64,000 bases of DNA from Candidatus Shapirobacteria bacterium (GCA_041665485.1 JBAYIT010000002.1:5867-69866); one strand, 5' to 3'. Positions 26,378 to 53,020 are shown, numbered from the stretch's first letter. Notes: a model not told the origin generated them from the letters alone. A program made the numbers and translations.

Positions 26378-27872
26378 ACGTCGGCTTATCCCAATCGTCT
26401 TAATAATCTGCCTCTCTCTTCTCTCCGTTTACCGGTTGTTGCGTCCTGGTTTTCTTTCTCTTCAAGACGATATGCATGTTTTTCGCTTACAGGAATTCCA
26501 CCAGTGTCTTATTGACGGCCAAATTCCCTGCCGTTATTCCACTACTGCCTCTTTCAATTACGGCTCACCCATTTTTAATTTCTACCCACCTCTTTCCTAT
26601 ATTATTCCCGAATTATTTCATCTTCTTGGTTTTTCTCTTGCCGACAGCATTAAACTCCTTCTCATTTTTTCTGCTGTTATCCGTGGTTTAGGCATGTACT
26701 TTCTTGCCGGTCCAGTTGCTGCCATTCTTTATATTTTCGCCCCTTACCAAGCCCTAAACACCTTTGTTCGTGGCGCTATTGCCGAAAACCTAGCCCTAAG
26801 CCTTCTGCCTTGGCTAATTCTGAGTTTAAAATATAAAAGATTTGCTTCCGCCACTCTCTTTTCAACTCTGCTCCTATTAACTCATCAACTTTCTATCATC
26901 GCCTTTCTGCCAATAATTGCCGGATTTTGCCTAATCGAAAAAATATCTTTTAAAAAATTAATAACTATTTCAACTCTTTCTCTTGGTCTTTCTTCGTTTT
27001 TTTTATTGCCCTCTATTTTCGAAAGGGGATTCACTACTAATAGCACTATGTTTACCGACTATTTTGATTATCATCTCCACTTTGTCAGTCTTTATCAAAT
27101 TTTTATCTCTCGCTTTTGGGGTTATGGTGCTTCCAATTGGGGAATAGGCGATGGCATGGGTTTTACTATTGGCCAAATTCAATTTATCATCCCATTTTTA
27201 CTTTTTTTATTTTCTCCAAAAAAGATTAAACTCAAAATTATCCCCTTACTTGGTCTTGCTCTTTTCTTTCTTTTCCTCACTCACCAACGTTCTACTTTTA
27301 TTTGGCAAGCCATACCTTTTTTGGCCTTTTTCCAATTTCCCTGGCGTTTTATTGGTCCAGCCGTTTTTCTGTTCTCTTATGCTTCAGGTTTAATCAAAAT
27401 TAATCGGTTGTTTATCATCCTCATTGCCGTCTTGGCCATCACCTCCAATATAAATTTCTTTCATGAAGACTTGTGGTATAAAAATCCAGATTTTCTCACT
27501 CAAAAATCAGAATCAGGTTTTCGTGATTTTTGGCCAAAATCCGGTAATCAATTTCCAGACAAACCCGCTCCTGCCACCACTGATGTTTCTAATTTCTCCA
27601 AAACCTCAAACCAAATAAATTTCACCTCCAATTTTGACAAGCCAACACTTACCGAATTGCCCTTAGTCTATTTTCCCGGCTGGAAAGCCACCATCAACCT
27701 TAGGCCCGCTAGTATTATCGTCAACCCTGATCTTGGCCAGATAAACCTTGATATTCCTGCCGGTAAAAACCAAATAAATTTAACTTTTGCCGATACTCCA
27801 ATTAGAAAAGCAGGTAACATTATTTCTTTGGGAACACTAGTTATTATATTAATAACCCTCCTACCACTATGA
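26367..27872 (+). CDS. Large polytopic membrane protein, GT-C-like family B (paralog of 1878..3581)
   Basis: 'LQDDMHVFRLQEFHQCLIDGQIPCRY...PIFNFYPPLSY' matches the motif of 1878..3581. The ATG at 26367 (MKTKRR) is preferred over the 26316 ORF start, which would overlap the upstream gene by 62 nt. Confidence 0.65.
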   Translation: MKTKRRLIPIVLIICLSLLSVYRLLRPGFLSLQDDMHVFRLQEFHQCLIDGQIPCRYSTTASFNYGSPIFNFYPPLSYIIPELFHLLGFSLADSIKLLLIFSAVIRGLGMYFLAGPVAAILYIFAPYQALNTFVRGAIAENLALSLLPWLILSLKYKRFASATLFSTLLLLTHQLSIIAFLPIIAGFCLIEKISFKKLITISTLSLGLSSFFLLPSIFERGFTTNSTMFTDYFDYHLHFVSLYQIFISRFWGYGASNWGIGDGMGFTIGQIQFIIPFLLFLFSPKKIKLKIIPLLGLALFFLFLTHQRSTFIWQAIPFLAFFQFPWRFIGPAVFLFSYASGLIKINRLFIILIAVLAITSNINFFHEDLWYKNPDFLTQKSESGFRDFWPKSGNQFPDKPAPATTDVSNFSKTSNQINFTSNFDKPTLTELPLVYFPGWKATINLRPASIIVNPDLGQINLDIPAGKNQINLTFADTPIRKAGNIISLGTLVIILITLLPL

Positions 27873-29464
27873 AAAAGTGGCCAAAATTTCTATTTGTCGT
27901 TATTCTTCTTCTATCCGCGTTTATCCGCTTCTATCAGTTAGATCATTTCCCTCCCAGCCCCAATTGGGACGAAGTTAGTCACGGTGTTAATGCTCAAAGT
28001 ATCTTAGAAACGGGAGCCGATCAATGGGGCCAAAAATTTCCTCTCTTCAATTTTCGTGCTTACGGCGATTATCCAACTGTCGCCAACATGTATTTCACTA
28101 TCCCTTTTATTAAAATCCTTGGTCTCAACACTTTATCTATTAGATTACCTTCGGCCATCTTTGGTTTTCTTTTCGTTCCTTTAATTTTCTTTTTATGTCA
28201 GATTTTGTTTGGCCAAACCAGAATCTCTCTCATCGCGATGTTTATTACTGCCATTGCCCCTTGGTCCTTTTTCCCTTCCCGCGCTGTTTTTCAATCAACT
28301 ACCGCCATTACTTTTCTTATCGCCGCCATTACTTTCTTTTTTTATTTTTATTATCATCATAAATCTTATCTCATATTTCTTAGTTCTCTCTTCTTAGGCT
28401 TATCCATGTACGCCTACCACAACACCAGGCTAATCGCCCCTTTGATCTTTGTCTATCTTTTTTGGTCAATCAAAAAATCATTTAAAAAAGTAGTTTTCCC
28501 TATCCTGTTATTTTTATTTTTTGCCGTCCCTTCTTTAATTAATCTTCTTTCTCCTGAATCCCGGGCCCGTGGTTATTGGGTTTCTTTAATTAACCCCAGT
28601 GCCATCAATTTAATCAACGAACAACGTCGGCTTTATGAAGGCCCACCAATTCTAAATTTGATCCTTCACAATAAAGTTACTTACGCCGTCCCTCAAATTA
28701 CCCTTAATTTCTTGAATTTTTTCAACCCCATTCCTTTATTTTTTACTGGTACCGGCCAATATCAATTCAATGTTGCCGGAAAGGGTCTCCTCTTTCCCGT
28801 TTGGCTTCCGTTTTTCTATCTTGGATTGTTATCTCTTTGGCGTCATCGCCAAAAACCATCTTATCGGTTTTTAATCTTTTGGCTTATTGTCGGCTTATTT
28901 CCTGCCATTATTACCTCCGGTGATTTTGCTTCCATCCGCGCCACCACTGCCATGCCTGTTTACCTTATTCTCACTGCCCTAGGCATCAATCAGTTTCTTT
29001 CCTCCCTTCCAATAATTCTTATCATTATTGCTTCACTTTTATCTTTTTCTAATTATCTTTATCTTTACATCACCTCTTACGCTCAAAATTACTCCCAATC
29101 TTGGCAATTTGGCTACCAAGAAGCCATAGAAATCATCAAACCCATCTACTCTAAGTACGACCATATCTATTTTACTAAAAAATACGGCGAACCCCATGAA
29201 TTCATTCTCTTCTTTTGGCCTTGGAGTCTCAAAAGCTTTCAGAATGATCCTAATTTAGGTTGGGACTATCATGCTTATTGGTATTGGGTCAACTCCTTTG
29301 ATAAATTTATATTCCTCAATGATTGGGAGATAACCAAATATTCTTTCCCCCCCAATAGTCTTTTGGTAACCTCTCCCCAAAATTATTCTGGCAAACCGGT
29401 TAAAATATCAGCAGTTAAGTTTCTTGATCAGTCGGTCGCTTTTGACATTGTCGGCTATGAATAA
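27869..29464 (+). CDS. ArnT/PMT-like GT-C membrane glycosyltransferase (paralog 5; first of three tandem copies)
   Basis: 'FPPSPNWDEVSHGVNAQSILETGADQWGQKFPLFNFRAYGDY' D-E loop. C-terminal domain 'WQFGYQEAIEIIKPIYSKYDHIYF...FILFFW'. Confidence 0.7.
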   Translation: MKKWPKFLFVVILLLSAFIRFYQLDHFPPSPNWDEVSHGVNAQSILETGADQWGQKFPLFNFRAYGDYPTVANMYFTIPFIKILGLNTLSIRLPSAIFGFLFVPLIFFLCQILFGQTRISLIAMFITAIAPWSFFPSRAVFQSTTAITFLIAAITFFFYFYYHHKSYLIFLSSLFLGLSMYAYHNTRLIAPLIFVYLFWSIKKSFKKVVFPILLFLFFAVPSLINLLSPESRARGYWVSLINPSAINLINEQRRLYEGPPILNLILHNKVTYAVPQITLNFLNFFNPIPLFFTGTGQYQFNVAGKGLLFPVWLPFFYLGLLSLWRHRQKPSYRFLIFWLIVGLFPAIITSGDFASIRATTAMPVYLILTALGINQFLSSLPIILIIIASLLSFSNYLYLYITSYAQNYSQSWQFGYQEAIEIIKPIYSKYDHIYFTKKYGEPHEFILFFWPWSLKSFQNDPNLGWDYHAYWYWVNSFDKFIFLNDWEITKYSFPPNSLLVTSPQNYSGKPVKISAVKFLDQSVAFDIVGYE

Positions 29465-31034
29465 AACAAAAATAATTTTATTCTTAATTGTTCTACTTGG
29501 TTTTCTCCTAAGATTCTACCGAATAGGGGAGTATCCTCCGCTTCTTTGGGACGAAGCCGCTCTCGGTTACAATGCTTATTCACTTCTTCAAACCGGAAGG
29601 GACGAACATGGTGCCTTTTTTCCATTAATTCTCAAATCTTTTGGCGATTACAAACCGGCCATTTATTCTTATCTTTCTATTCCCTTTGTCTTCCTTTTTG
29701 GTCTTAATGAAACATCTGTCAGGCTGGTTTCTATTATTGCCGGCTGTCTTTCCCCTTTGTTTTTGTACTTTCTTATTAATAAAATCGATTCAAAAAAACA
29801 GAAAGTCGCCTTACTATCAGCTTTAGTATTGGCTGTCACTCCTTTTGCTATCCACTTTTCCCGTGGCGCTTGGGAAACTAACCTATTGGTTTTTGAAATT
29901 ATTGTTAGCCTCTATTTCTTCTTTTCCCAAAAGTTTTTTCTTTCCGCTTTTATTCTTTCTCTTTCACTTTACACCTATCAGTCAGCCAAAATGCTTGTTC
30001 CCTTTATCTTCTTACCTCTGATTCTACAATCTCTGAAACAACACCCAAAAATTATCTTTACCAAGTTCCTCATCCCAATTCTTATCTTTTCTCTCCCGCT
30101 CCTATGTGGTCTTCTGTTTTCTCAAGACTCGGGTCGTCTTAAAGTCGTTAGTCTCTTTTCCTATCCTCAAAGCCAGGAAGAGATATCAGTTATCAAAAAC
30201 GAAACGGGAAACTTTGATTATTTGCTCTTCCACAATAAATATCTAAATTTTGGCCGCCAGTTTTTAACCCGTTACTTTAATCACTTTTCTCCCCGTTTCT
30301 TATTCTTTGATGGCGATTGGCAATCTCCCCGCCATAGCGCCCCTTACATCGGCGTCCTCCTCCTCCCCTCTACCTTGTTCCTAATTTTAGGACTGATTAC
30401 TAATTACCGTTTACCAATTACCAAATTATTCCTCTACTGGCTTCTTATCGCCCCCATTCCTTCTTCTCTCACCCGCGATCTCCTTTCCGGCGTCCGCTCC
30501 CTCTTTCTTGTCATCCCTCTCACTTATTTCACTGCCCTCGGTATCCGCCGGATTACGGATCACCGTTCACGATTCACGTATCTAGTTACTAGTATCATGT
30601 TTCTAGTATCTTTAATCTATTACTCCGATCTCTACTACAGCCATATGGTCAAAAAGTCACCTTTCGATTTTCTTTATGGTAATAAGGAAGTTGCCCAATT
30701 TGTCATTAACAACCAACAAAATTACGATCGTATTTATTATTCCGACTTTTATGGCCAACCTTACATCTTCTATCTTTTCTACTCCCAATATTCCCCCAAG
30801 AAATACCAAGCCAAAAATCATTTAAGTTTATCCGGGCCAGACATTGGACATGTTGAAAAAATCGACAATATTCTTTTTGCTTCACCCGATTTCAATTTCA
30901 TTAGAAATCAACCTCAAAAAATTTTAGCCATTTTTAGTTTTGACGAAGTAGAGAGGCAGGGGATAGATAAAAAATTATTAACCCCTATTTCTACTATTGG
31001 CAATATTACCACCTACTATGCCTACTCTAATTAA
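29457..31034 (+). CDS. ArnT/PMT-like GT-C membrane glycosyltransferase (paralog 6)
   Basis: 'YPPLLWDEAALGYNAYSLLQTGRDEHGAFFPLILKSFGDYKP'. C-terminal domain 'YGNKEVAQFV...YIFYLFYSQY'. The ORF begins at 29424, but M12 at 29457 (MNKTKIILF) is the likely start. Confidence 0.7.
   Translation: MNKTKIILFLIVLLGFLLRFYRIGEYPPLLWDEAALGYNAYSLLQTGRDEHGAFFPLILKSFGDYKPAIYSYLSIPFVFLFGLNETSVRLVSIIAGCLSPLFLYFLINKIDSKKQKVALLSALVLAVTPFAIHFSRGAWETNLLVFEIIVSLYFFFSQKFFLSAFILSLSLYTYQSAKMLVPFIFLPLILQSLKQHPKIIFTKFLIPILIFSLPLLCGLLFSQDSGRLKVVSLFSYPQSQEEISVIKNETGNFDYLLFHNKYLNFGRQFLTRYFNHFSPRFLFFDGDWQSPRHSAPYIGVLLLPSTLFLILGLITNYRLPITKLFLYWLLIAPIPSSLTRDLLSGVRSLFLVIPLTYFTALGIRRITDHRSRFTYLVTSIMFLVSLIYYSDLYYSHMVKKSPFDFLYGNKEVAQFVINNQQNYDRIYYSDFYGQPYIFYLFYSQYSPKKYQAKNHLSLSGPDIGHVEKIDNILFASPDFNFIRNQPQKILAIFSFDEVERQGIDKKLLTPISTIGNITTYYAYSN
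30551..30620 (+). repeat. Degenerate 7-nt periodic array at the homologous position of paralog 29457..31034
   Basis: gattacg gatcacc gttcacg attcacg tatctag ttactag tatcatg tttctag tatcttt aatctat. Confidence 0.6.
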
Positions 31035-32607
31035 AAACAATTTTTGGTTACTACTCATTATTTTTTTGGCCGCCGTCTTGCGGTTCTACAATATTGGTAA
31101 TTATCCTACTCTTAATCCCGACGAAGCCGCTCTTGGTTACAATGCTTACTCTTTAATTCAAACCGGTAAAGACGAACACGGCGCTTCCTGGCCTCTCCAT
31201 TTTAAATCATTTGGCGACTTTAAACCCGGAGGTTACGTCTATTTAGCTATCCCTTTTATTGCCACCTTTGGTCTTACTCCACTGGCCGTTCGTCTCCCTA
31301 ATCTTCTGCTTTCGCTTTTAACCATACTTTATTTCTATAAAATAGCTTTTTTGTTCACCAAATCGCGACAAATTTCTTTGATTTCAGCTTTGTTTTTAGC
31401 CATTAACCCCTGGCATCTCCATTTTTCCCGTGGCGCTTGGGAATCATCTTCTGCTCTGGCTTTTTTAGTTATTGGTAGCTACTACTTTCTTGTTCGTCGT
31501 TATTTTCTTTTTGTTCTCACTTTTGTCGCCTCTCTCTATCTCTACCACTCTGCCCGTATCGTTGCCCCACTTCTGGCCTTGTCATATCTTTTTATTCATA
31601 AATCATATTTCATAAATCATAAATCAAAATTAATTTTCCCAATACTTATCGGTATTCTCCTCACTTTCCCCGTTCTTTTCTCATTTCTTAAAAACGGTGG
31701 TACTACCCGTTTTGGCGGTGTTGGTTTAACTGCCGACACCGGCCCGTTATCCCGTTCTGAAGAACTTCTTAATCACCACATGAGTACCGCCCTGCCTTTA
31801 AGAATTCTTCATAATCGTCGGGTACTTTATCTTATGTCTTGGGGGCAAAAATATTTTTCCCACTTTGATCTCAATTTTCTTTTTATTAATGGTGATGAAG
31901 TTCCCCGTTCCAAAGTTCCCGATATGGGCCAACTTTACCTTCTTCAACTTCCGTTTCTTCTATATGGTATTTATATTTTCTTTCAATCTAAGATCTATCA
32001 TCTAAAATCTAAGATCTTTGTATTGTCTTGGCTTTTAATCTCCCCCCTTGCCTCTTCTTTCACTTTTCAAGCCCCCTCTGCCCTCCGCGCCCTACCCCTG
32101 GTTATCCCCCTCACTTTTCTCTCCGCCCTCGGCTTTTATTGGTTTACGTATCACCTATCACGTACCTTGTACCTTGTACCTTGTACCTTGTACCTAGTCT
32201 CTTGTCTCTTCTATCTTGATTCTTATCACAATCATTATCAAAAACGCTATCCCTTTGCCTGGAATTATGGCTTTAGTCAAGTTATTCCTTACCTTAATTC
32301 CCAAAAAGACAACTATCAAAATATCTATTTTACTAACAAATACGATCAGCCCTATATTCTCTATCTCTTCTTTTCAAAGTATCCTCCGCAAAAAATTCAA
32401 TCGCAAATAAAACTCACCCCGCCCGATAAATTCGGTTTTTCCACTGTATCCCAAATCGACAACATCTACTTTGGTAAAATTGAGTGGGACAAAATTTCAA
32501 CTAACTCATTAATTATTTCTTCTCCAGACGAAAAAGCCCCAATTCCACCAATTAAAACAATTGAAGTTCAACCCAACAAAGCTGTTTTCAATATTTATCA
32601 AAAATAA
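31018..32607 (+). CDS. ArnT/PMT-like GT-C membrane glycosyltransferase (paralog 7); contains three heptanucleotide-periodic arrays
   Basis: 'YPTLNPDEAALGYNAYSLIQTGKDEHGASWPLHFKSFGDFKP'. C-terminal domain 'WNYGFSQVIPYL...YILYLFFSKY'. The ORF begins at 30997; M8 at 31018 is likely. Confidence 0.7.
   Translation: MPTLIKNNFWLLLIIFLAAVLRFYNIGNYPTLNPDEAALGYNAYSLIQTGKDEHGASWPLHFKSFGDFKPGGYVYLAIPFIATFGLTPLAVRLPNLLLSLLTILYFYKIAFLFTKSRQISLISALFLAINPWHLHFSRGAWESSSALAFLVIGSYYFLVRRYFLFVLTFVASLYLYHSARIVAPLLALSYLFIHKSYFINHKSKLIFPILIGILLTFPVLFSFLKNGGTTRFGGVGLTADTGPLSRSEELLNHHMSTALPLRILHNRRVLYLMSWGQKYFSHFDLNFLFINGDEVPRSKVPDMGQLYLLQLPFLLYGIYIFFQSKIYHLKSKIFVLSWLLISPLASSFTFQAPSALRALPLVIPLTFLSALGFYWFTYHLSRTLYLVPCTLYLVSCLFYLDSYHNHYQKRYPFAWNYGFSQVIPYLNSQKDNYQNIYFTNKYDQPYILYLFFSKYPPQKIQSQIKLTPPDKFGFSTVSQIDNIYFGKIEWDKISTNSLIISSPDEKAPIPPIKTIEVQPNKAVFNIYQK
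31596..31637 (+). repeat. Degenerate heptamer array (TCATAAA-like x6)
   Basis: tcataaa tcatatt tcataaa tcataaa tcaaaat taatttt, inside 31018..32607 (encodes 'FIHKSYFINHKSKLI'). Confidence 0.65.
31987..32021 (+). repeat. Degenerate heptamer array (ATCTAAG-like x5)
   Basis: atctaag atctatc atctaaa atctaag atctttg, inside 31018..32607 (encodes 'QSKIYHLKSKIF'). Confidence 0.65.
32149..32217 (+). repeat. Heptanucleotide-periodic tandem array including perfect (GTACCTT)x4
   Basis: tatcacc tatcacg gtacctt x4 gtaccta gtctctt gtctctt ctatctt, inside the ArnT-like paralog 31018..32607 (translated '...YHLSRTLYLVPCTLYLVSCLFYL'). Confidence 0.85.
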
Positions 32608-33390
32608 ATGAAAAAACCAACAATTTCCATTGCCATCGCCACCTACAATGAAGCTGACAACATTAAACAATGCCTCAAAGCTGTTGTCGATTGGGCTGAT
32701 GAAATCGTCATTTACGATGCTGAATCCATTGACGATACCGTCAAAATCATTAATACTTTCCCCAAAACCAAACTAATCACTGGCCCCAACCATCCTATCT
32801 TTCATATTAATAAGCAACGAGCTATTGACGTTTGTAAATCTGATTGGATTCTCCAGCTTGATGCTGATGAGATTGTCACTCCAGAGCTTAAGTCAGAAAT
32901 TTTGACCACCATTTCAAATAACCCTTCAGAAAATGGTTTTTGGATCGACCGTAAAAATTATTTTCTTGGACGATTCTTAACCAAAGGTGGCGTTTACCCA
33001 GATCCAACTATCCGTCTTTATCGTCGCAATAAAGGCAAATTACCATGTAAAGATGTTCACGAACAGGCAAGAATAATTGGTAGTGTTGGCCATCTTAAAT
33101 CCGACCTTCTCCACTATGCTGACCCTTCTTTTCAACGTTACTTAATGCGCAACAATCGCTACACTGGCCTAATTGCCACCGAATTAGAATCCCAAAAAGT
33201 TCCTCTTAATTTATTCTTCGGCCTAAATTATTTTCTTCTCAAGCCTATTATTAACTTTTTTTCTACTTATTTTCGCCACAAGGGTTTTGCTGATGGTTTT
33301 CCCGGGTTTATCTTTTCTTGGTATTCGTCTCTTCGCTTTCCTATTTCTTTTATCAAATATTGGGAATTAAAAAATGGCAAAACAGATTAA
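32608..33390 (+). CDS. GT2 glycosyltransferase with C-terminal hydrophobic segment (ArnC-like)
   Basis: 'ISIAIATYNEADNIKQCL...DEIVIYDAESIDDT' and 'DADE' DXD. C-terminal 'LFFGLNYFLLKPIINFF'. Confidence 0.7.
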   Translation: MKKPTISIAIATYNEADNIKQCLKAVVDWADEIVIYDAESIDDTVKIINTFPKTKLITGPNHPIFHINKQRAIDVCKSDWILQLDADEIVTPELKSEILTTISNNPSENGFWIDRKNYFLGRFLTKGGVYPDPTIRLYRRNKGKLPCKDVHEQARIIGSVGHLKSDLLHYADPSFQRYLMRNNRYTGLIATELESQKVPLNLFFGLNYFLLKPIINFFSTYFRHKGFADGFPGFIFSWYSSLRFPISFIKYWELKNGKTD

Positions 33391-34447
33391 AGTTGCTCTT
33401 GACATATCTCCCCTCAAAGATGGCAACGCCAACCGTGGCATGGGCTATTATGTCCGCAACTTACTCACCGCCATGCAATCACAAATCTCCTCCAACCCCA
33501 ACTTCAAAAACTTTAAAATTTCAGAAGTTAGAAATTGGAAATTAGAAATTGGAAATTTTGATTTACTCCATATTCCTTACTTCAACCCTTTCTCCCCCTC
33601 CTATCCTATTCATCTCCAAATACCCACAGTCATTACTGTCCCTGACTTAATTCCTATCGCTTACAAAAAACATTACACAGTTGGCATCAAAGGCACACTC
33701 AATTGGTGGCGACAAAAACTATTTCTCAAAAATATTCCCTATATTATCACTATCGCTCACTCTCAAAAATATATCATTCATAAAATTACTGGCTATCCGC
33801 TTGATCGCATTTACGTCACATGGCTAGCTGCCGCCAGCCACTTCAAGCCGGAAACTTCAAAAATAAAACTAAATCAAATTAAGAAAAAATATAATCTGCC
33901 AGACAAATTTGTTCTCTATGTTGGTGATATTAACTGGAATAAAAACATTCCTCGTCTTGTTAGTAGTTGCCTCGATTTAAAATATCCATTAGTTATTGTC
34001 GGTAGCTCCGCCACTAGAAAAAATATTACCGATCATCCTTGGAATCAAGATTTACTTTGGGTCCAATCTCACTCCAATCAAATCACTTTAACTGGTTTTG
34101 TCCCCGACGAAGATATACCTGTCATTTATTCTTTGGCCACTATTTACTGTCAACCATCATATTCCGAAGGTTTTGGTCTACCCTTAGTTGAAGCCATGAA
34201 AACCGGCTGTCCTGTCAGCTATAGTCAAGAGCCAACTTGTCAGGAAATTATGGATTATCACGGTGATTTTTTTGATCCTAACTCTACTGCCGGTCTTAAA
34301 GATTCTCTTAAGAGGCTCTGGTCAGATCCTGAACTTAGGAAAAAGTTAGCAATCGAGGGATTAAAACATTCGCAAATCTTCGACTGGAAACTAACAGCCA
34401 TTCAAACTCTCACTCTTTATTCCCAAATCTACCATGAAAATCACTGA
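33374..34447 (+). CDS. GT4 (GT-B fold) glycosyltransferase
   Basis: 'CQPSYSEGFGLPLVEAMKTGCPVSYS' EX7E region. Carries a GG(A/T)AATT heptamer array at 33523..33557. Confidence 0.7.
   Translation: MAKQIKVALDISPLKDGNANRGMGYYVRNLLTAMQSQISSNPNFKNFKISEVRNWKLEIGNFDLLHIPYFNPFSPSYPIHLQIPTVITVPDLIPIAYKKHYTVGIKGTLNWWRQKLFLKNIPYIITIAHSQKYIIHKITGYPLDRIYVTWLAAASHFKPETSKIKLNQIKKKYNLPDKFVLYVGDINWNKNIPRLVSSCLDLKYPLVIVGSSATRKNITDHPWNQDLLWVQSHSNQITLTGFVPDEDIPVIYSLATIYCQPSYSEGFGLPLVEAMKTGCPVSYSQEPTCQEIMDYHGDFFDPNSTAGLKDSLKRLWSDPELRKKLAIEGLKHSQIFDWKLTAIQTLTLYSQIYHENH
33523..33557 (+). repeat. Heptamer array (AGAAATT/GGAAATT) x5, with a perfect 14-mer x2
   Basis: agaagtt agaaatt ggaaatt agaaatt ggaaatt, inside GT4 33374..34447 (encodes 'EVRNWKLEIGNF'). 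Confidence 0.8.
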
Positions 34448-35237: not shown

Positions 35238-36151
35238 AACCCCTATTCTCTGTAATTATTCCCGTTCGTCATCCTACCGACTATCTTGAAGAGACAGTCA
35301 GGGCCCTCGACAAGCAGTCTCTTAACAACTTTGAACTCCTAGTTATTACCGACAAAATAGCCGGTAATGTCTCACCGGCAATTAAGCGTAATCTTGGTGC
35401 CAAGATGGCCAAAGGAGAATATCTTGCCTTTCTCGACGACGATTCTTATCCTTCTTCTGATTGGCTCAAAAACGCCCGAAAACACTTTTCCAAAAATATC
35501 ACTGCCGTCTGTGGCCCTTGTTTAACACCTCCAAGTGATGATGTTTTTCGCCAAGCGTCTGGTCTCGTTTGGTCTAGTTTTCTTGGCAGTGGTGGGGCAG
35601 GGGAGTATCGTAATAATATTGCCAAACCTCGATTTGTCGACGATTTTCCTTCTGTCAATTTGATAGTCAAAAAAAGTGATTTTTTAGAAGTTAAAGGCTT
35701 TAATACTCATCACTGGCCGGGAGAAGACACTATTCTTTGTTTAGATCTGACCCACAAACTTCATAAAAAAATCTTCTATCATCCTAGCGTTCAAGTTTTC
35801 CATCACCGCCGAAAAGTTATAATCCCCCATCTTCAACAAATCACCCGCTACGCTATTCATCGTGGTCTTTTTGCTAAAATCTACCCCCAAACTAGCCTTC
35901 GAATTGGTTACATTCTCCCCTCCCTCTTTATTATATATTTATTATTATTGCCGTTATTGCCAAAGACATTTTTAATTCCACTATTTATCTATCTGCTTCT
36001 ACTTCTATTTACTTTTTTCAATTTTATTTTAAAAAATAGCCTTATCGTTTCTCTTTTGGCTACTATCACCATTCCCATTACTCACCTTTATTATGGTATA
36101 TTTTTCATCCGTGGTTTATTCAAAAATGAACTAAAGTTTATCCCCCTATGA
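35234..36151 (+). CDS. GT2 glycosyltransferase with C-terminal TM helices
   Basis: 'LFSVIIPVRHPTDYLEETVRALDKQSL..FELLVITD' and 'FLDDDSYP' DXD. The C-terminal approx. 90 aa are strongly hydrophobic. Confidence 0.7.
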   Translation: MKPLFSVIIPVRHPTDYLEETVRALDKQSLNNFELLVITDKIAGNVSPAIKRNLGAKMAKGEYLAFLDDDSYPSSDWLKNARKHFSKNITAVCGPCLTPPSDDVFRQASGLVWSSFLGSGGAGEYRNNIAKPRFVDDFPSVNLIVKKSDFLEVKGFNTHHWPGEDTILCLDLTHKLHKKIFYHPSVQVFHHRRKVIIPHLQQITRYAIHRGLFAKIYPQTSLRIGYILPSLFIIYLLLLPLLPKTFLIPLFIYLLLLLFTFFNFILKNSLIVSLLATITIPITHLYYGIFFIRGLFKNELKFIPL

Positions 36152-37578
36152 AAATAGCTATTTCATATCCGCCGTTAGATTCATCAAAGGGCTCTGCCTT
36201 TCTTTCTCAAAATCGCCAGTTTCAGTGGACAAACACCGGTAATATTATTTATCCGGTTATCGCTGCTTATGCCGCTACTCTCCTCCAAAAACTTGGCCAT
36301 CAAGTATTTTGGGACGATGCCATTGTTCAAAAACTTGACTATCAAACCTGGCTTAATCGTCTTATCAGACAAAAACCAGATCTCATCGTTATTGAATCCA
36401 AAACTCCGGTTATTAAACTCCATTGGCAAATCATTAAAGACCTAAAAAGAAGGAATTTGGAAATTGGTAATTGGAAATTGGTTATTTGTTTAATTGGCGA
36501 TCATGTTTCCGCTCTCCCTGAAGAATCAATTAAAAATTCCCCCGTCGACTTCGTTTTAGTCGGCGGTGACTACGATTTCTTGCTTGAAAAACTAGTTAAT
36601 CTCTTGTCCAAAAATAAAATACCAAAAAACAAAATTATAAAAGTTAGCCCAACACACAATCTTGATTCGCTCCCCATAATCGACCGAAAACTAACCCAAT
36701 GGCATCTTTATGCCTACAACAACACCAACTATAAATATAAGCCTGGAGCCTACATCATGTCTGGTCGTGACTGCTGGTGGGGGAGTTGTACTTTCTGTTC
36801 TTGGACATCTCTTTTTCCCGGAAAAACATTCCGTAAATTCAGCGTCGACCACACTATCTCTGAAATCGAAAACTTAGTTAACAATTTTGGTGTCAAAGAA
36901 ATTTTTGATGACTCCGGCACTCTTCCCACTGGCCAATGGCTTGAAAACTTATGTCATCAATTAATTGATAAAAAGTTAAGTCAAAAAGTTAAACTCGGTT
37001 GCAATATGCGTTTTGGTGCTTTGAACCAAGAACAATACTATCTAATGAAACAAGCCGGCTTTCGTTTAGTGCTTTATGGCCTTGAATCGGCTAATCAAAA
37101 AACACTTGACTTAATTAATAAAAATGAAAAGACTTCTGATGCTATTAAAACCTTGCAAATGGCCAAAAAGGCCGGCCTTGAACCACATATCACCGTCATG
37201 ATCGGCTATCCTTGGGAAACTGAATCGGATGCCATCAAAACTCTCAATCTTGCTCGTAAAATTTTTCGAGAAGGGTTGGCCGATAGTATCCAAGCCACCC
37301 GAATTATTCCCTATCCGGGCACGGTTCTCTTTAATCAATCCCTCAAAAATAATTGGCTTTTATCTAAAGATTGGCAGGATTATGACATGCGCCAAAGTAT
37401 CATCAAATCACCCATCAGCTCTGCAAAACAAGAAAAACTAATACTTAGCCTTTTTAAGGGTGTTCTCACTCCTAATTTTCTTATTCGCAAAATCCTTTCC
37501 GTTCGGTCTCTTTATGATATTAAGTTTCTTACTGGCTATGCCATCAAATACCTCCAAAAAATCAGGGATTTTAAATAA
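36148..37578 (+). CDS. B12-binding-domain radical SAM enzyme (class B rSAM)
   Basis: N-terminal cobalamin-binding-like domain ('DFVLVGGDYDF') followed by 'SGRDCWWGSCTFCSW' (CxxxCxxC). 476 aa. Carries a GG(A/T)AATT heptamer array at 36453..36487. Confidence 0.7.
   Translation: MKIAISYPPLDSSKGSAFLSQNRQFQWTNTGNIIYPVIAAYAATLLQKLGHQVFWDDAIVQKLDYQTWLNRLIRQKPDLIVIESKTPVIKLHWQIIKDLKRRNLEIGNWKLVICLIGDHVSALPEESIKNSPVDFVLVGGDYDFLLEKLVNLLSKNKIPKNKIIKVSPTHNLDSLPIIDRKLTQWHLYAYNNTNYKYKPGAYIMSGRDCWWGSCTFCSWTSLFPGKTFRKFSVDHTISEIENLVNNFGVKEIFDDSGTLPTGQWLENLCHQLIDKKLSQKVKLGCNMRFGALNQEQYYLMKQAGFRLVLYGLESANQKTLDLINKNEKTSDAIKTLQMAKKAGLEPHITVMIGYPWETESDAIKTLNLARKIFREGLADSIQATRIIPYPGTVLFNQSLKNNWLLSKDWQDYDMRQSIIKSPISSAKQEKLILSLFKGVLTPNFLIRKILSVRSLYDIKFLTGYAIKYLQKIRDFK
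36453..36487 (+). repeat. Heptamer array GG(A/T)AATT x5
   Basis: ggaattt ggaaatt ggtaatt ggaaatt ggttatt, inside the rSAM gene 36148..37578 (encodes 'RNLEIGNWKLVI'). Same unit as 33523..33557. Confidence 0.75.
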
Positions 37579-48705: not shown

Positions 48706-49506
48706 GTGCTTGATCTAATTTCTGAAATCAAAAACATTTTTAAGTGGCGCGAACTTCTCTTTCAAATGGTTGGCCGGGAAGTCAAAGCCCGCTACAAACA
48801 ATCAATTCTCGGCTACTTTTGGGTAGTCCTCAATCCATTAGCTCAAATGCTGGTCATGAGCTTTGCTTTTTCTCTAATTTTACGCATTCCTACCAACGCC
48901 GCTTCAAATATTCCCTACAGCATTTTTCTTTTTGTTGCCCTTCTTCCCTGGAATCTCTTTGCCAACTCTTTATCTTCTTCAGCCCGATCTCTAGTCGACG
49001 CATCCTCGCTTATTACCAAGATATATTTTCCTCGAACCATTCTAGTTGTTGCCGCCATTGTTGCAAAAATCGTCGACTTTCTTTTCGCCTTGATTATCCT
49101 CATTGGTTACATGGTTATTTATCAAATTCCCATCAATACAAATATCCTATGGGTCTTTCCAATCTTTGTAATCCAACAAATCTTTACCATCGGGCTTTCC
49201 TTTTTCTTCGCCGCCGCCAATCTTCTCTATCGTGATATTCAATATCTTCTCACTCTCCTTCTAACTCTCTGGATGTATCTTACCCCCATTATCTATCCGG
49301 CCGACATTGTCCCTCCACAATATAAAATTTTCTTCCAACTCAACCCTCTCTCGGTAATTGTTAATGCCTACCGTCAAGTAGTTTTAGGTGGTTCTCCACC
49401 AAATTACACCAGTCTCTTTATTGCCCTTTCTTTGTCTTTACTAACTTTCACATTAGGACTTTCTTATTTTAAATCCCGCGAAAAAATCTTCGCTGATAAT
49501 ATCTAA
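48706..49506 (+). CDS. wzm: ABC-2 type polysaccharide/teichoic-acid export permease (Wzm/TagG-like)
   Basis: 'ELLFQMVGREVKARYKQSILGYFWVVLNPLAQMLVMSFAF' is the typical ABC-2 N-terminus. 6 TM segments, 266 aa. The ORF 48744..49235 is an out-of-frame shadow. Confidence 0.75.
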   Translation: MLDLISEIKNIFKWRELLFQMVGREVKARYKQSILGYFWVVLNPLAQMLVMSFAFSLILRIPTNAASNIPYSIFLFVALLPWNLFANSLSSSARSLVDASSLITKIYFPRTILVVAAIVAKIVDFLFALIILIGYMVIYQIPINTNILWVFPIFVIQQIFTIGLSFFFAAANLLYRDIQYLLTLLLTLWMYLTPIIYPADIVPPQYKIFFQLNPLSVIVNAYRQVVLGGSPPNYTSLFIALSLSLLTFTLGLSYFKSREKIFADNI

Positions 49507-49507
49507 T

Positions 49508-50236
49508 ATGACAAAATCTATTATTGAGTTTGTTAATGTCCAAAAAGACTTTAATCTTACCTCTCAAAAAACTTTCAAAGAGTTTTTGCCGGCTCTATTT
49601 CTTGGTGAAAAAACTCACGATTCTTTCACCGCTCTTAGTGACGTTTCTTTTACTATTAATGCCGGAGAAACCATTGGCATTATCGGCCCTAATGGTTCAG
49701 GCAAATCAACTATTCTAAAACTTGTCGCCAAAGTTATGTCTCCAACCTTCGGCAAAGTTGAAGTTCACGGTAAAGTATCGCCTCTTATCGAACTTGGTGC
49801 TGGTTTTCACCCTGAACTTACCGGTAAAGAAAATGTCTATTTAAGTGGTGCCATCTTAGGACTCAAAAAAAGACAGATCGACGAACATTTTAAATCAATT
49901 GTTGACTTTGCCGGGCTTGAAGAATTTATTAATCAGCCCATCAAACACTTTAGCTCCGGCATGTATATGCGCCTAGCTTTCGCCGTTGCCGTTCACGTTG
50001 ACCCAGAAATTCTTATTGTTGACGAAATTTTGGCTGTTGGTGACGCTCCTTTTCAGGCTAAATGCTTCACTAAAATGGAAGAATTCAAAAAGAAGGGAGT
50101 CACTATTCTTTTTGTCTCCCACTCTCTCAATACCATTCAATCTTTTTGCACTCGCGTGCTCTACATCAAACAAGGAAAGCTAATCGCCGATGGCCCCAGT
50201 TCTCAAGTCTGTCAGCAATATCAAAATGACCAATAA
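49508..50236 (+). CDS. wzt: ABC transporter ATP-binding protein (Wzt/TagH-like, short form without a C-terminal carbohydrate-binding domain)
   Basis: Walker A 'GIIGPNGSGKST', signature 'FSSGMYMRLAFA', Walker B 'ILIVDEILAVGD'. Translationally coupled to the permease (2-nt gap). Confidence 0.8.
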   Translation: MTKSIIEFVNVQKDFNLTSQKTFKEFLPALFLGEKTHDSFTALSDVSFTINAGETIGIIGPNGSGKSTILKLVAKVMSPTFGKVEVHGKVSPLIELGAGFHPELTGKENVYLSGAILGLKKRQIDEHFKSIVDFAGLEEFINQPIKHFSSGMYMRLAFAVAVHVDPEILIVDEILAVGDAPFQAKCFTKMEEFKKKGVTILFVSHSLNTIQSFCTRVLYIKQGKLIADGPSSQVCQQYQNDQ

Positions 50237-50436
50237 AATTTCGAGCTATTTTTCGCCAAACCAAATTCCATACTCAACTGCCAATTCATCAGTACTTTCT
50301 GAAGCAATGTCTACCGCCTCTTCCAAATCCTTTCCTTTTCCTAAATCGCTAATAACGCTATCATCGCTGGCACACATCAACTTTACCTCAAAATTCTTCC
50401 TATTAATAAATATGTAATTATCAGCACTCATACCCT

Positions 50437-51426
50437 ATGATACCGAAAAAACGGAAAAAATCAAATAAATCAAAAATTAATCAACCAACTGGAATATCGA
50501 TCGTCATTCCCAATTGGAACGGCCAAGCCTTCTTGCCCTCCTGCCTTAACTCTCTATTAACCTCCATCAAAAAAACCAAAAACATATTGTTTGAAATAAT
50601 CCTTGTCGACAACGCCTCCACCGACAAATCTGTCTCTATCTTTAAATCCAGCGTACCAGCTTACCAGCGTACTAAGGTATTGCGACTCCGTCGCAATACC
50701 GGCTTCGTCTACGCCGTCAACAGAGGCATTGAAGCTTCCCAATTCGATTACGTTTGCATTTGCAACAACGACCTTACTGTTGATCAAAATTGGTTTACCG
50801 AAATCGTCAAAGCCATCCAGCGCACCAGCGAACCAGCGAACCATCGCACCAGCGAACCAATCACCACTTTCTCCGGTCTAGTTCTCAACAAAGATGGCAC
50901 TAAAATCGAGAGCAGGGGGTTAAGATTCTACCCATATGGCAAAGCCGAAAACATCGCCAACGGCCTCCCTTTTTCAAAAACTAACATCCATCATCTAAGT
51001 TCTAAGAACTATCTGATTTGGGGTTCTTCCGCCTCCATAGTCATCTACCACAAACCGACTATTTTAAAAGTTGGTCTCTTTGATGAACGTTTCTTTGCCT
51101 ACGAAGAAGATGTTGACCTCGCCTACCGCCTTAACAAATCCGGCTTCAAAACCCTCTTTGTTCCCACCGCCATCTCTTATCATCTTGGTGGCGGTACTTC
51201 TTCTAAAATGGGCAACTTCCGCCAACAGATGGATTTCAAAAATTGGATTTTATTAATTGCCAAAAACTATAGTTTCAGGGAAATCCTTGCCAATTCTCCA
51301 GTCATTTTCATCGAACGCCTTAGAAACCTCTCCGGTGTTGTTAAATCCACCCCCCTCCCCAAACTCCCTCAAACCCTCTTTTCCGTCTTCTCCCAAACCC
51401 TCTCTGCCCTTATTCAAAAAAAATAA
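50437..51426 (+). CDS. GT2 family glycosyltransferase carrying in-frame octamer-repeat insertions
   Basis: 'ISIVIPNWNGQAFLPSCL...IILVDNASTDKS' and 'ICNNDLTVDQNWF'. Octamer arrays CCAGCG(A/T)A at 50649..50672 and 50818..50865 encode 'PAYQRTK' and 'QRTSEPANHRTSEP'. Confidence 0.7.
   Translation: MIPKKRKKSNKSKINQPTGISIVIPNWNGQAFLPSCLNSLLTSIKKTKNILFEIILVDNASTDKSVSIFKSSVPAYQRTKVLRLRRNTGFVYAVNRGIEASQFDYVCICNNDLTVDQNWFTEIVKAIQRTSEPANHRTSEPITTFSGLVLNKDGTKIESRGLRFYPYGKAENIANGLPFSKTNIHHLSSKNYLIWGSSASIVIYHKPTILKVGLFDERFFAYEEDVDLAYRLNKSGFKTLFVPTAISYHLGGGTSSKMGNFRQQMDFKNWILLIAKNYSFREILANSPVIFIERLRNLSGVVKSTPLPKLPQTLFSVFSQTLSALIQKK
50649..50672 (+). repeat. Octamer array CCAGCG(T)TA x3
   Basis: ccagcgta ccagctta ccagcgta, inside GT2 50437..51426. 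Confidence 0.8.
50818..50865 (+). repeat. Octamer array CCAGCG(A/C)A x6 (degenerate)
   Basis: ccagcgca ccagcgaa ccagcgaa ccatcgca ccagcgaa ccaatcac. 48 nt, in frame, encoding 'QRTSEPANHRTSEPIT'. Confidence 0.8.
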
Positions 51427-51449
51427 TTTCCTATAAAATAGTATAAATC

Positions 51450-51794
51450 ATGTCAATTTTAAAAATAGACCACATCCCAAGCCCTGAAGATGTTATCGCT
51501 CTAACACAAGAATTTCCCGAATATATAAAACTCTCTGCTGATTTAAACAAGCAAATATTGTATGGTGGAAGCCGTCTGCATCATGATTGTGAACAAAAAT
51601 TAATTAATCAAGAGTCTTCAGAAAATAAACATATTTGGAGTAGGGGAGTCAATCTCGCCACTAAAAAAATAGATTACGAGGCCGTAGCTAACATCAAACC
51701 ATCGATGGGTAATCCCAGTTCTGAAATTTTAGATCCGGAAAAACGGCGAAAATTTAAGGATTTAGTTAAAATCTATTTTCCCGACTATGAATAA
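51450..51794 (+). CDS. Small hypothetical protein (114 aa), possibly a DUF5674-type protein
   Basis: Soluble and acidic. 'GGSRLHHDCEQKLINQESSENKHIWSRGVNL...SEILDPEKRRK' recalls a small conserved CPR/Firmicutes protein family from memory; low certainty. Confidence 0.4.
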   Translation: MSILKIDHIPSPEDVIALTQEFPEYIKLSADLNKQILYGGSRLHHDCEQKLINQESSENKHIWSRGVNLATKKIDYEAVANIKPSMGNPSSEILDPEKRRKFKDLVKIYFPDYE

Positions 51795-52059
51795 CAACCA
51801 ATATCTTGAATATATGAATTTAACCACCGACGCCAAGCGAGCTGTCTACGAACTAGTAAGTCCAGAAATAGGAAACAACAGCTACTTCCTCCGTCAATAT
51901 TTGTTTGGTATTTCTCAATACTTTTCCCACTTAAAAAACTTTCGCCAGTCTTTTAACCTCGACTTACTTGAATCCTCAAACACCAATCCAAAAATCAAGG
52001 CAGAATATTTACTCGACAACAACCGAATAATTTTGAATTTTATTAAAAAATCTTCTTAA
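51787..52059 (+). CDS. Small hypothetical protein (90 aa)
   Basis: ORF overlapping the upstream stop by 8 nt. No recognisable motif. Confidence 0.35.
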   Translation: MNNNQYLEYMNLTTDAKRAVYELVSPEIGNNSYFLRQYLFGISQYFSHLKNFRQSFNLDLLESSNTNPKIKAEYLLDNNRIILNFIKKSS

Positions 52060-53020
52060 ACAGCCTCGTCAACTTTTCTTCGCTATGCCTTAGTCGCATA
52101 TTTTTTTCCTCAATCATCGCCACATCTTCAACTATCGTTTTAACCTTTGCTTTTTGGCATATTTTTAGCAATTCTGAATGCTCTAGGCGGTAAAAATCCA
52201 TCACCTTTTTTAATTTTCTTGTTGGTAATATCCCCAAATCAGCCATAACCACCAAGTCAAACGGTTTCTTCATTTTTATATATTTTTCAAACACCTCAAC
52301 AATTTCTTCTTGACTAAACCCTTTATTTTCAAAAGCCGTTGTCATTAAATTTGTCAGCAATATCTTCTTGGCCCTCGATCTTCTATAAGCTTGGGCCACC
52401 CCCTCCACTAAAAAATTAATCACCACCGATCCATACATACTTCCCGGGCAAACAATAATCACCTCTGCCTTACCTAAAGCCTCAATCACCTCACAATTTA
52501 TTGCCACTTTAGGCTTTAGCCATACGTCTTTAACCTGATCATCAGACATTCTTAGCTCATCCAGCCTGTGTTCTCCCTCATAACTTCTTCCACTTCTTGT
52601 TTTAAAACAAACATTACTTGGCTCCAAAGACACCGGTATCACTCTCCCGCAAATCTTAGCCCCGGTTAGTTGAGAAAATAAAGTGTCCACACGGCTCAAG
52701 TTTCCTACTTTTTCCGCCATAAATTGAAAAAATATGTTGCCAAAATTTCTATCTCTGCCATCTCTAAATTTGAGCATTTCCTCCCAAATCTCTTTTTGTT
52801 TCCCATTTTTCCATAAAGATATCATCGATCGCCAATAGTCAGAAAACGCCAAGATGTTTCCTCTCTCATCAGTCCGAATTCTGCCGCTATCTCCTCCGCT
52901 ATCAAACGGCGTTACTATCGAATCAATGTTCTCAAACCCGGCCCGAATCAATGCCCGATTGACAATCGGCATCCCCGACCCTCCGCCAATTGTGCAAATT
53001 CTTTTCCCCAAAGTCATCAT
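52043..53020 (-). CDS. YvcK/GlmR/CofD-family protein (UPF0052; 2-phospho-L-lactate transferase-like, UDP-sugar-binding gluconeogenesis factor family)
   Basis: N-terminal 'ICTIGGGSGMPIVNRALIRAGF...IVTPFDSGGDSGRIR' matches the GGGTG...L..L..../DDGGSSG signature of the YvcK/CofD family. Confidence 0.65.
   Translation of the reverse strand: MMTLGKRICTIGGGSGMPIVNRALIRAGFENIDSIVTPFDSGGDSGRIRTDERGNILAFSDYWRSMISLWKNGKQKEIWEEMLKFRDGRDRNFGNIFFQFMAEKVGNLSRVDTLFSQLTGAKICGRVIPVSLEPSNVCFKTRSGRSYEGEHRLDELRMSDDQVKDVWLKPKVAINCEVIEALGKAEVIIVCPGSMYGSVVINFLVEGVAQAYRRSRAKKILLTNLMTTAFENKGFSQEEIVEVFEKYIKMKKPFDLVVMADLGILPTRKLKKVMDFYRLEHSELLKICQKAKVKTIVEDVAMIEEKNMRLRHSEEKLTRLFKKIF

Follow-up and report, generated by a model that had tools for sequence, protein, structure and literature searches.

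Typical coding variable-number tandem repeats (VNTRs) have units that are multiples of three nucleotides, with every step preserving the reading frame. Non-triplet repeats lie in the frame of surface-glycan genes in the phase-variable glycosyltransferases of Haemophilus influenzae, Neisseria and Campylobacter; these known switches have long, uninterrupted tracts, often near the 5′ end, of poly-G of at least 7 or at least five tetra- or pentanucleotide copies (PMC6321876), and ON and OFF alleles occur among strains. Units of 7–8 nt that recur within a genome above the expectation from composition include the STRR heptamers of cyanobacteria, GGGNATC in Xanthomonas and Nostoc, and TAACTGA in Beggiatoaceae; these families are mainly intergenic, with tens to hundreds of loci per genome (PMC4692102, PMC4679880). 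In Legionella, length-variable intragenic tandem repeats are tolerated in protein, and their copy number varies among relatives (PMC2639597). Here we describe two arrays of an 8-nt unit within a GT2-family glycosyltransferase gene of a Candidatus Shapirobacteria bacterium, in a stretch of 64,000 nt (GCA_041665485.1, JBAYIT010000002.1:5867-69866) that we refer to as the window.

The locus shares something with each of these systems. It has the non-triplet, in-frame repeat of the phase-variable genes, but its arrays are interrupted and mid-gene, and we found no variant or OFF allele. Arrays of 7–8-nt units exceed expectation, as in the intergenic families, but nearly all of the arrays described here lie in coding loops of glycosyltransferase-type genes, and only two sites in 64 kb have the CCAGCGNA unit. 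As in Legionella, protein regions tolerate repeats of variable length, whose copy number differs among relatives; the 8-nt unit, unlike that of coding VNTRs, makes only every third step viable. We conclude that this is a real but ordinary coding microsatellite pair in a generic GT2 enzyme. The arrays probably arose from an 8-nt unit through replication slippage or short tandem duplication, became locked in frame within tolerant loops, and are now decaying. Their slippage origin is well supported; slippage as the mechanism is what we infer from these data.

Two octamer arrays within one GT2 gene

The gene and the elements within it are as follows.

50437-51426, + strand: GT2-family glycosyltransferase gene, an ORF of 329 aa that holds both arrays
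50648-50671, + strand: array 1, three units, CCAGCGTA CCAGCTTA CCAGCGTA, encoding S71-T79 (SSVPAYQRT)
50764-50772, + strand: codons aac aac gac of N110-N111-D112, the DXD-position motif at the end of strand β4, in invariant alignment columns
50817-50859, + strand: array 2, 5.4 units, CCAGCGCA CCAGCGAA CCAGCGAA CCATCGCA CCAGCGAA CCA, with the five units at 50817-50856
50824-50843, + strand: ACCAGCGAACCAGCGAACCA, 20 nt or 2.5 units within array 2, the longest uninterrupted period-8 tract of the gene
50857-50864, + strand: CCAATCAC, of which the first three bases, CCA, continue array 2 and the remainder forms the Ile-Thr codons that start strand β5

Both arrays were recovered by Tandem Repeats Finder (TRF), array 1 at 50648-50672 (period 8, 3.1 copies, 88% matches) and array 2 at 50817-50859 (period 8, 5.4 copies, 85% matches), and again by a pattern search. 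A preliminary description of this DNA had recognised both, at coordinates one base too high, and had counted six units in the second. Array 2 consists of five units and CCA: the supposed sixth unit, CCAATCAC, agrees with the unit core at only 4/8 positions, and its ATC ACC codons specify a conserved Ile-Thr pair that homologues encode as ATA ACC or ATC ACC (codon alignment with P0002, P0003 and P0004). Array 2 covers codons 127-141 and encodes Q128-P141 (QRTSEPANHRTSEP), a translation, and a position after the invariant N110-N111-D112 motif, that the preliminary description had given correctly.

The two-unit pattern CCAGCGNACCAGCGNA, with at most 3 mismatches, has seven matches in the 64-kb window, and all seven fall within the GT2 gene. 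Shuffled versions of the window averaged 1.13 matches, with 5 at most, and 0/100 shuffles reached 7, indicating that the arrays are not chance. The window holds two CCAGCGNA sites in total, both in the GT2 gene, and no CCAGCGNA array outside it. Identity at a lag of 8 nt is 0.88 for array 1 and 0.84 (27/32) for the array 2 core. In the latter, identity rises with the lag, to 21/24 at 16 nt and 15/16 at 24 nt. With CCAkCGCA as unit A and CCAGCGAA as unit B, array 2 reads A B B A B. The longest perfect period-8 tract in array 1 is 15 nt.

Because 8 and 3 have no common factor, three octamer units encode the same cyclic 8-residue peptide whichever frame is read, and the peptides of array 1 (SVPAYQRT) and array 2 (QRTSEPAN) are related by circular permutation. 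Since 8 is not divisible by 3, a change of one or two units truncates the enzyme; simulated gains and losses of 1 or 2 units gave products of 76-160 aa, consistent with the earlier statement that a single-unit change would shift the frame.

Loop length, homologous arrays and a proposed origin

Sequence families and a structural model assign the gene product to the GT2 family of glycosyltransferases, with a predicted GT-A fold. The protein matches PF00535 (E=5e-24, 85.5 bits against a cut-off of 23.3), and PF13641 and PF10111 likewise above their own cut-offs; it is 100% identical to MFA6518470.1, annotated at NCBI as 'glycosyltransferase family 2 protein [Candidatus Shapirobacteria bacterium]'. 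An AlphaFold2 model made with 26 homologues as input has a pTM of 0.81, and Foldseek matched it with a probability of 1.00 to GT-A enzymes, for example 6p61, 5hea, TarS and K4CP. N110-N111-D112 and E224-D225-V226-D227 are invariant across the homologue alignment (26 homologues), the former standing at the DXD position as NND, which differs from the classic DXD. A search of NCBIfam found no specific equivalog at its cut-off; all equivalogs scored below, and a more specific enzyme assignment was dropped.

We aligned 25 homologues with the GT2 protein and measured two spans in 89 of 120 listed homologues. The span from NND to ESxG, which includes array 2, is 48 residues in the GT2 protein, as compared with a family mode of 41 (55/89) and a range of 37-49; only 4/89 homologues have 47 residues or more. 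The three closest homologues among the matches listed (68-75% identity, BLASTP) are 7 residues shorter exactly at array 2, reading AIQ-S-QTDKK-ITTF where the GT2 protein reads AIQ-RTSEPANHRTSEP-ITTF, a net gain of 7 residues or 21 nt. In the model, array 2 forms the end of helix 119-131 (α4) and the loop before strand 144-146 (β5), with pLDDT < 50 at residues 134-138. Given the longer span than in the family and in the closest homologues, and the low-confidence modelled loop, we interpret array 2 as a lineage-specific extension of a length-variable loop that is predicted to be disordered. Array 1 differs in this respect. Its span, from VDNxS to NxGF, has 30 residues where the mode is 31, and the model places it, with a pLDDT of ~92, at the end of helix 65-72 (α2), in a short turn and at the beginning of strand 78-83 (β3). 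By these measures array 1 is no insertion and appears to be hypervariable sequence of typical length that happens to be periodic. The preliminary description had taken both arrays for insertions into a compact GT-A fold and suggested that homologue alignment could confirm the extra length and structure prediction could show whether the insert forms a surface loop; for array 2 the alignment confirms the extra length and the model gives a low-confidence loop, whereas array 1 is neither longer than usual nor modelled as anything but a confident helix-turn-strand.

Both loops hold other arrays in homologues. In the counterpart of the array 2 loop, homologue P0009 has an octamer array of another unit, (ACTACTCA)x~7 (locus L200 ~612-667), and its close relative P0058 (L202) lacks exactly 24 nt, or three units, of this array; mean column identity between the two genes is 86% across the aligned stretch and, by our own count, roughly 93% outside the gap. 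Similarly, P0066 has a perfect (CCAGAGCA)x4.4 directly after its start codon, and its relative P0097 (85% mean column identity) is exactly 24 nt shorter at this N-terminal array. At loop 1, P0004 has (TCATAAA)x4.4 and P0003 (ATTGAAA)x4.4, these being the two closest homologues with arrays detected there, where the gene described here has (CCAGCGTA)x3. The homologue peptides at the two loops are unrelated (SLKIENCKLKIL, PHKSYFINHKSI, NYSTTKLFNYSSTKL). As homologues carry different arrays at these positions and relatives differ by 24 nt, short non-triplet arrays have repeatedly formed and turned over at loops 1 and 2, and the length differences that survive come in three-unit steps. In two other cases, near-identical contigs from three samples have an unchanged copy number. 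Homologues with a MINFS start were considered as out-of-frame alleles of the P0066 array and rejected; their start overlaps the stop codon of an upstream DUF192 gene, and the array is absent.

These data are consistent with a model in which an 8-nt unit was multiplied by replication slippage or short tandem duplication in two regions encoding change-tolerant loops. Selection would remove alleles with one- or two-unit changes, which truncate the enzyme, and only net three-unit changes (24 nt, 8 residues) would persist; the arrays would therefore be frame-locked, and would now decay through point substitution. Array 2 would have added 7 net residues to the disordered loop between α4 and β5, and array 1 would have replaced the sequence of a hypervariable connection between helix and strand while leaving its length as it was. 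The simplest history for array 2 would start from A B followed by CCA, an allele that would give a loop span of 40, as found in 7/89 homologues; a 16-nt duplication and then an 8-nt duplication would bring the total to +24 nt. This order of events (+16 then +8 nt) would imply a transient out-of-frame state or one complex event. The present-day mutability of the arrays is presumably low. The suggestion in the preliminary description of a recent slippage or minisatellite expansion holds up well: the 8-nt sub-periodicity is real, other 7- and 8-nt arrays lie in the homologue loops, and two pairs of relatives differ by three units.

Short arrays in related contigs and alternative explanations

We fetched 80 metagenome loci around GT2 homologues and ran TRF on the 58 non-redundant low-GC loci (598,883 nt; drawn from L003-L005, L017 and L112-L198), retaining arrays of three or more copies with matches of 80% or above. 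The control was the mean of triplet-shuffled sequence.

Period 3: observed 1, shuffled mean 0.8
Period 4: observed 1, shuffled mean 1.0
Period 5: observed 1, shuffled mean 3.2
Period 6: observed 7, shuffled mean 4.2
Period 7: observed 30, shuffled mean 2.6
Period 8: observed 10, shuffled mean 2.0
Period 9: observed 1, shuffled mean 0.6
Period 10: observed 1, shuffled mean 1.0
Period 11: observed 2, shuffled mean 0
Period 12: observed 0, shuffled mean 0

Periods 7 and 8 thus exceed the shuffled expectation about 5- to 12-fold in these related contigs. Nearly all of the arrays are within glycosyltransferase-sized ORFs, often at homologous GT2 loops with units differing by lineage. The window itself has eight arrays of period 7, two of period 8 and four of other periods at 2.8 copies or more, all within long open frames except a period-12 array near the window's end. 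CCAGNGNA-type arrays of at least 3 units occur in 4 genomes at 5 gene positions, as compared with 0-1 matches in shuffles even at 2 units or more. Heptamer repeats are over-represented in bacterial genomes, mainly in intergenic DNA, a pattern described as unexplained (PMC4692102). Frame-locking accounts for part of the excess, in that triplet-unit arrays can shrink unit by unit and vanish, and non-triplet arrays cannot; it does not account for enrichment at 7 and 8 without 10 or 11, or for the recurrence of similar units. Some of this recurrence may be mundane: peptide words in biased codons are already periodic (STIY as TCT ACC ATC TAC), and T-less units are stop-free in all three frames.

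Several individual arrays are worth recording. The purest non-triplet tract of the window, and a better slippage candidate than the GT2 arrays, is at 32162-32225, where a perfect (GTACCTT)x4.9 gives way to degenerate units of the GTCTCTT type (TRF, 3.1 copies, 32197-32218); it is inside a PMT-like membrane glycosyltransferase gene (ORF 30997-32607) and encodes RTLYLVPCTLYLVSCLFYL. GAAATTG arrays are in frame in two unrelated genes 2.9 kb apart, at 33524-33557 in a GT4 gene (33374-34447) and at 36452-36486 in a radical SAM gene (36148-37578), encoding EVRNWKLEIGNFD and RNLEIGNWKLVIC. Locus L144 has five AAAATTG arrays within 10 kb. One of them, a perfect (AATTGAA)x4.6 at 13790-13821, includes the TGA stop of a GT4 gene and runs on into intergenic DNA; coding AATTGAA copies elsewhere in L144 and in L004 have Cys or Tyr (e.g. 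ENC, ENY) where the perfect unit gives TGA. CCAGNGNA-type arrays were found at L017 6605-6638, at the N-terminus of a Wzt-like ATPase (SSEPANQRTSEP), at L112 10014-10048, the perfect CCAGAGCA x4.4 at the N-terminus of P0066, and at L132 8835-8866, in a GT4 gene (SSAPAHQHTS).

A scan of GTDB species-representative genomes for the perfect 20-mer returned 104 stretches, mostly in GC-rich bacteria such as Wenzhouxiangella. Arrays of CCAGCGAA with up to about 20 units occur in many unrelated, mostly GC-rich bacteria (L008-L111); more than 15 of these loci come from a single Wenzhouxiangella genome and look like a lineage-specific octamer repeat family. The GC-rich loci make a poor control set, having been selected for octamer arrays. 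We gave less weight to the coincidence of a CCAGCGAA-type array in the Wzt-like gene of a contig of the Candidate Phyla Radiation (CPR), L017, because the search was conditioned on that unit and about 100 hits per unit class are expected if each genome holds a few octamer arrays.

Four considerations weigh against frame-locked slippage as the full account. An increase of 24 nt from ~2.4 units exceeds one simple slip, and arriving at A B B A B would take two or more frameshifting steps or one complex event, and hence an inactive intermediate or a mechanism other than plain slippage. The two GT2 arrays share nearly one unit, which independent random slippage does not predict, and the related units CCAGCGAA, CCAGCGCA and CCAGAGCA recur in other genes of other Shapirobacteria-like genomes. 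The excess of periods 7 and 8 over 6, 9, 10 and 11 goes beyond what frame-locking alone explains. Finally, the account assumes that the array-encoded peptides are neutral.

We next consider the alternatives. The preliminary description raised a slippage-prone contingency sequence. In an active phase-variation locus, single-unit slippage would switch the glycosyltransferase off and on at high frequency and diversify a surface glycan, as happens with LOS and capsule genes in Haemophilus, Neisseria and Campylobacter. As a present-day switch this is not supported, and we regard it as improbable. The gene does have a non-triplet unit inside the ORF of a glycan-cluster gene, where a one- or two-unit change truncates the product, in a lineage whose glycan genes are strongly enriched in non-triplet arrays; the internal order of array 2 would suggest earlier frameshifting steps, and relatives have longer perfect arrays just after a start codon (that of P0066, and (CCAGCGAA)x4.2 in the Wzt-like ATPase of L017). 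However, the switching rate depends on repeat number (PMC11868660), and the 2.5 uninterrupted units found here compare with a cut-off in PhasomeIt of five or more repeats for longer units (PMC6321876). Enrichment near N-termini is a signature of tuned phase variation (PMC3315296), whereas both GT2 arrays are mid-gene. The 90%-identity protein cluster has one member among ~15 billion proteins, with no length variant, and no split or truncated fragment of near-100% identity is among the matches listed. In genomes whose phase-variable gene sets are established, many of the loci are usually out of frame, in the OFF state. In ~600 kb of related contigs no coding period-7 or -8 array is out of frame or at a frameshift junction, these being consensus assemblies from which minority alleles would escape; the few arrays without a long open frame, considered as possible split genes, proved to be intergenic or at gene boundaries. 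The constant copy number over three samples in two other cases also argues against frequent switching. A variable-gap scan of JGI metagenome contigs anchored on the flanks (TCAAAGCCAT..CCAGCGAA..CACCACTTTCTC) gave 0 matches and also missed the source contig, and is thus uninformative on polymorphism. That the arrays are a chance similarity or an assembly artefact is hardly credible, short and imperfect as they are: no shuffle reached the observed count, the ENA megahit and Logan assemblies (possibly of the same sample) are base-for-base identical to the window sequence, and the ORF is unbroken, with homologues aligning to either side of each array.

A further possibility is that the arrays belong to dispersed, lineage-specific families of 7–8-nt repeats seeded by templated insertion, ectopic template switching or a sequence-specific factor, like the cyanobacterial STRR heptamers or GGGAATC of Xanthomonas, with a possible role at the DNA or RNA level and with coding loops as the sites available in compact CPR genomes. 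We consider this possible but unlikely. Two sites in the GT2 gene have an identical or almost identical unit, GAAATTG arrays occur in two unrelated genes of the window, and the L144 arrays include a perfect one that extends from a stop codon into intergenic DNA. ATCTACC/ATCTACG-type arrays, or PSTIY-type peptide repeats, are at several sites in and around glycosyltransferase genes, and the recurrence of CCAGNGNA-type arrays, the specific enrichment of periods 7 and 8 and the reported heptamer over-representation point the same way. Yet the window has no further CCAGCGNA array, a count that covers 64 kb of this genome (related units occur in three other genomes); no candidate enzyme or template for seeding was identified; no Rfam family matches 49000-53000 at E up to 1; some recurrence has the simpler cause given above; and the L017 array was found through a search for an exact 20-mer. 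Selection at the protein level on the peptide RTSEP or PANQRTSE, as a flexible linker, phosphorylation site or interaction site with DNA periodicity as a by-product, is very unlikely. It could draw on the frame-independent cyclic peptide, on the circular permutation between the two arrays and on the N-terminal SEPANQRTSEP of a Wzt-like ATPase from another genome, but homologues have unrelated peptides at the same loops, the family mode lacks such a segment, the array 2 loop is predicted to be disordered and is not conserved in sequence, and the copies share codons, which indicates duplication at the DNA level rather than convergence. Stacked transposon target-site duplications, diversity-generating retroelements (DGRs), a resemblance to tRNA-CCA, and a Chi-like or uptake-sequence role of the reverse complement TTCGCTGG were dropped, there being no evidence for them.

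The GT2 case alone changes little: the enzyme is generic, its loop extension can be put down to slippage, and there is no evidence that it is regulated. It does illustrate how microsatellites with a non-triplet unit can persist inside genes once frameshift selection blocks single-unit change, such that relatives differ by exactly three units. A broader proposal is that glycan genes of Shapirobacteria, a CPR lineage, are systematically colonised by genome-specific families of 7- and 8-nt arrays in tolerant coding loops and N-termini, which is tentative and, in our estimation, rather doubtful. If true, the GT2 arrays would be one decayed instance of this process, and the build-up of non-triplet arrays would reflect either repeated inactivation and reactivation, a slow phasome on an evolutionary scale acting on episymbiont surface glycans, or a dedicated mutational process that writes arrays. 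CPR bacteria rely on cell-surface contact with hosts. If confirmed genome-wide, the excess of 7- and 8-nt arrays in glycosylation genes could mean an unrecognised diversification of surface glycans or a peculiar mutational signature of reduced genomes.

The glycan cluster and other features of the window

Two genes upstream of the GT2 gene resemble the components of a glycan exporter.

48706-49506, + strand: Wzm-like ABC-2 permease (Pfam PF01061)
49508-50236, + strand: Wzt-like ABC ATPase (Pfam PF00005), immediately upstream of the GT2 gene

By their family assignments, these genes mark a glycan export cluster of the ABC-transporter type. The order Wzm-like, Wzt-like, GT2 is also found in other assemblies, and glycosyltransferase genes dominate the window. 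This context of exporter and glycosyltransferase genes suggests that the GT2 gene acts on a surface structure. A 61-residue ORF on the - strand (50246-50431) lies between the Wzt-like and GT2 genes; it is called as a gene in another assembly of the genome and in the P0002 contig (L003 244-429), and its product has no Pfam family on record. An Rfam search over 49000-53000 gave no match at E up to 1, and an RNA element at the locus was accordingly dropped as a candidate.

Elsewhere in the window, five ORFs of 518-554 residues are arranged in tandem, head to tail, at 24713-32607, and the three that were scanned match PMT/PMT_2 membrane glycosyltransferases. GC skew is negative in all 2-kb bins of the window (1-64000), from -0.06 to -0.41, with a single bin not below -0.1. 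Whichever strand the genes are on, the + strand is C-rich, with a skew of -0.31, for example, at 40-46 kb, where the genes are on the - strand.

In the related genome GCA_964408995.1, small proteins are interspersed in the glycan region, at L017 6232-6597 and L112 6645-6950. The product of the latter matches the four-helix-bundle family 23S_rRNA_IVP (PF05635), with a faint bAvd match, and the former resembles it by eye only. RhuM and Bro-N genes lie near these small-protein ORFs, and the contig, on its gene content and its 29-30% GC, looks CPR-like.

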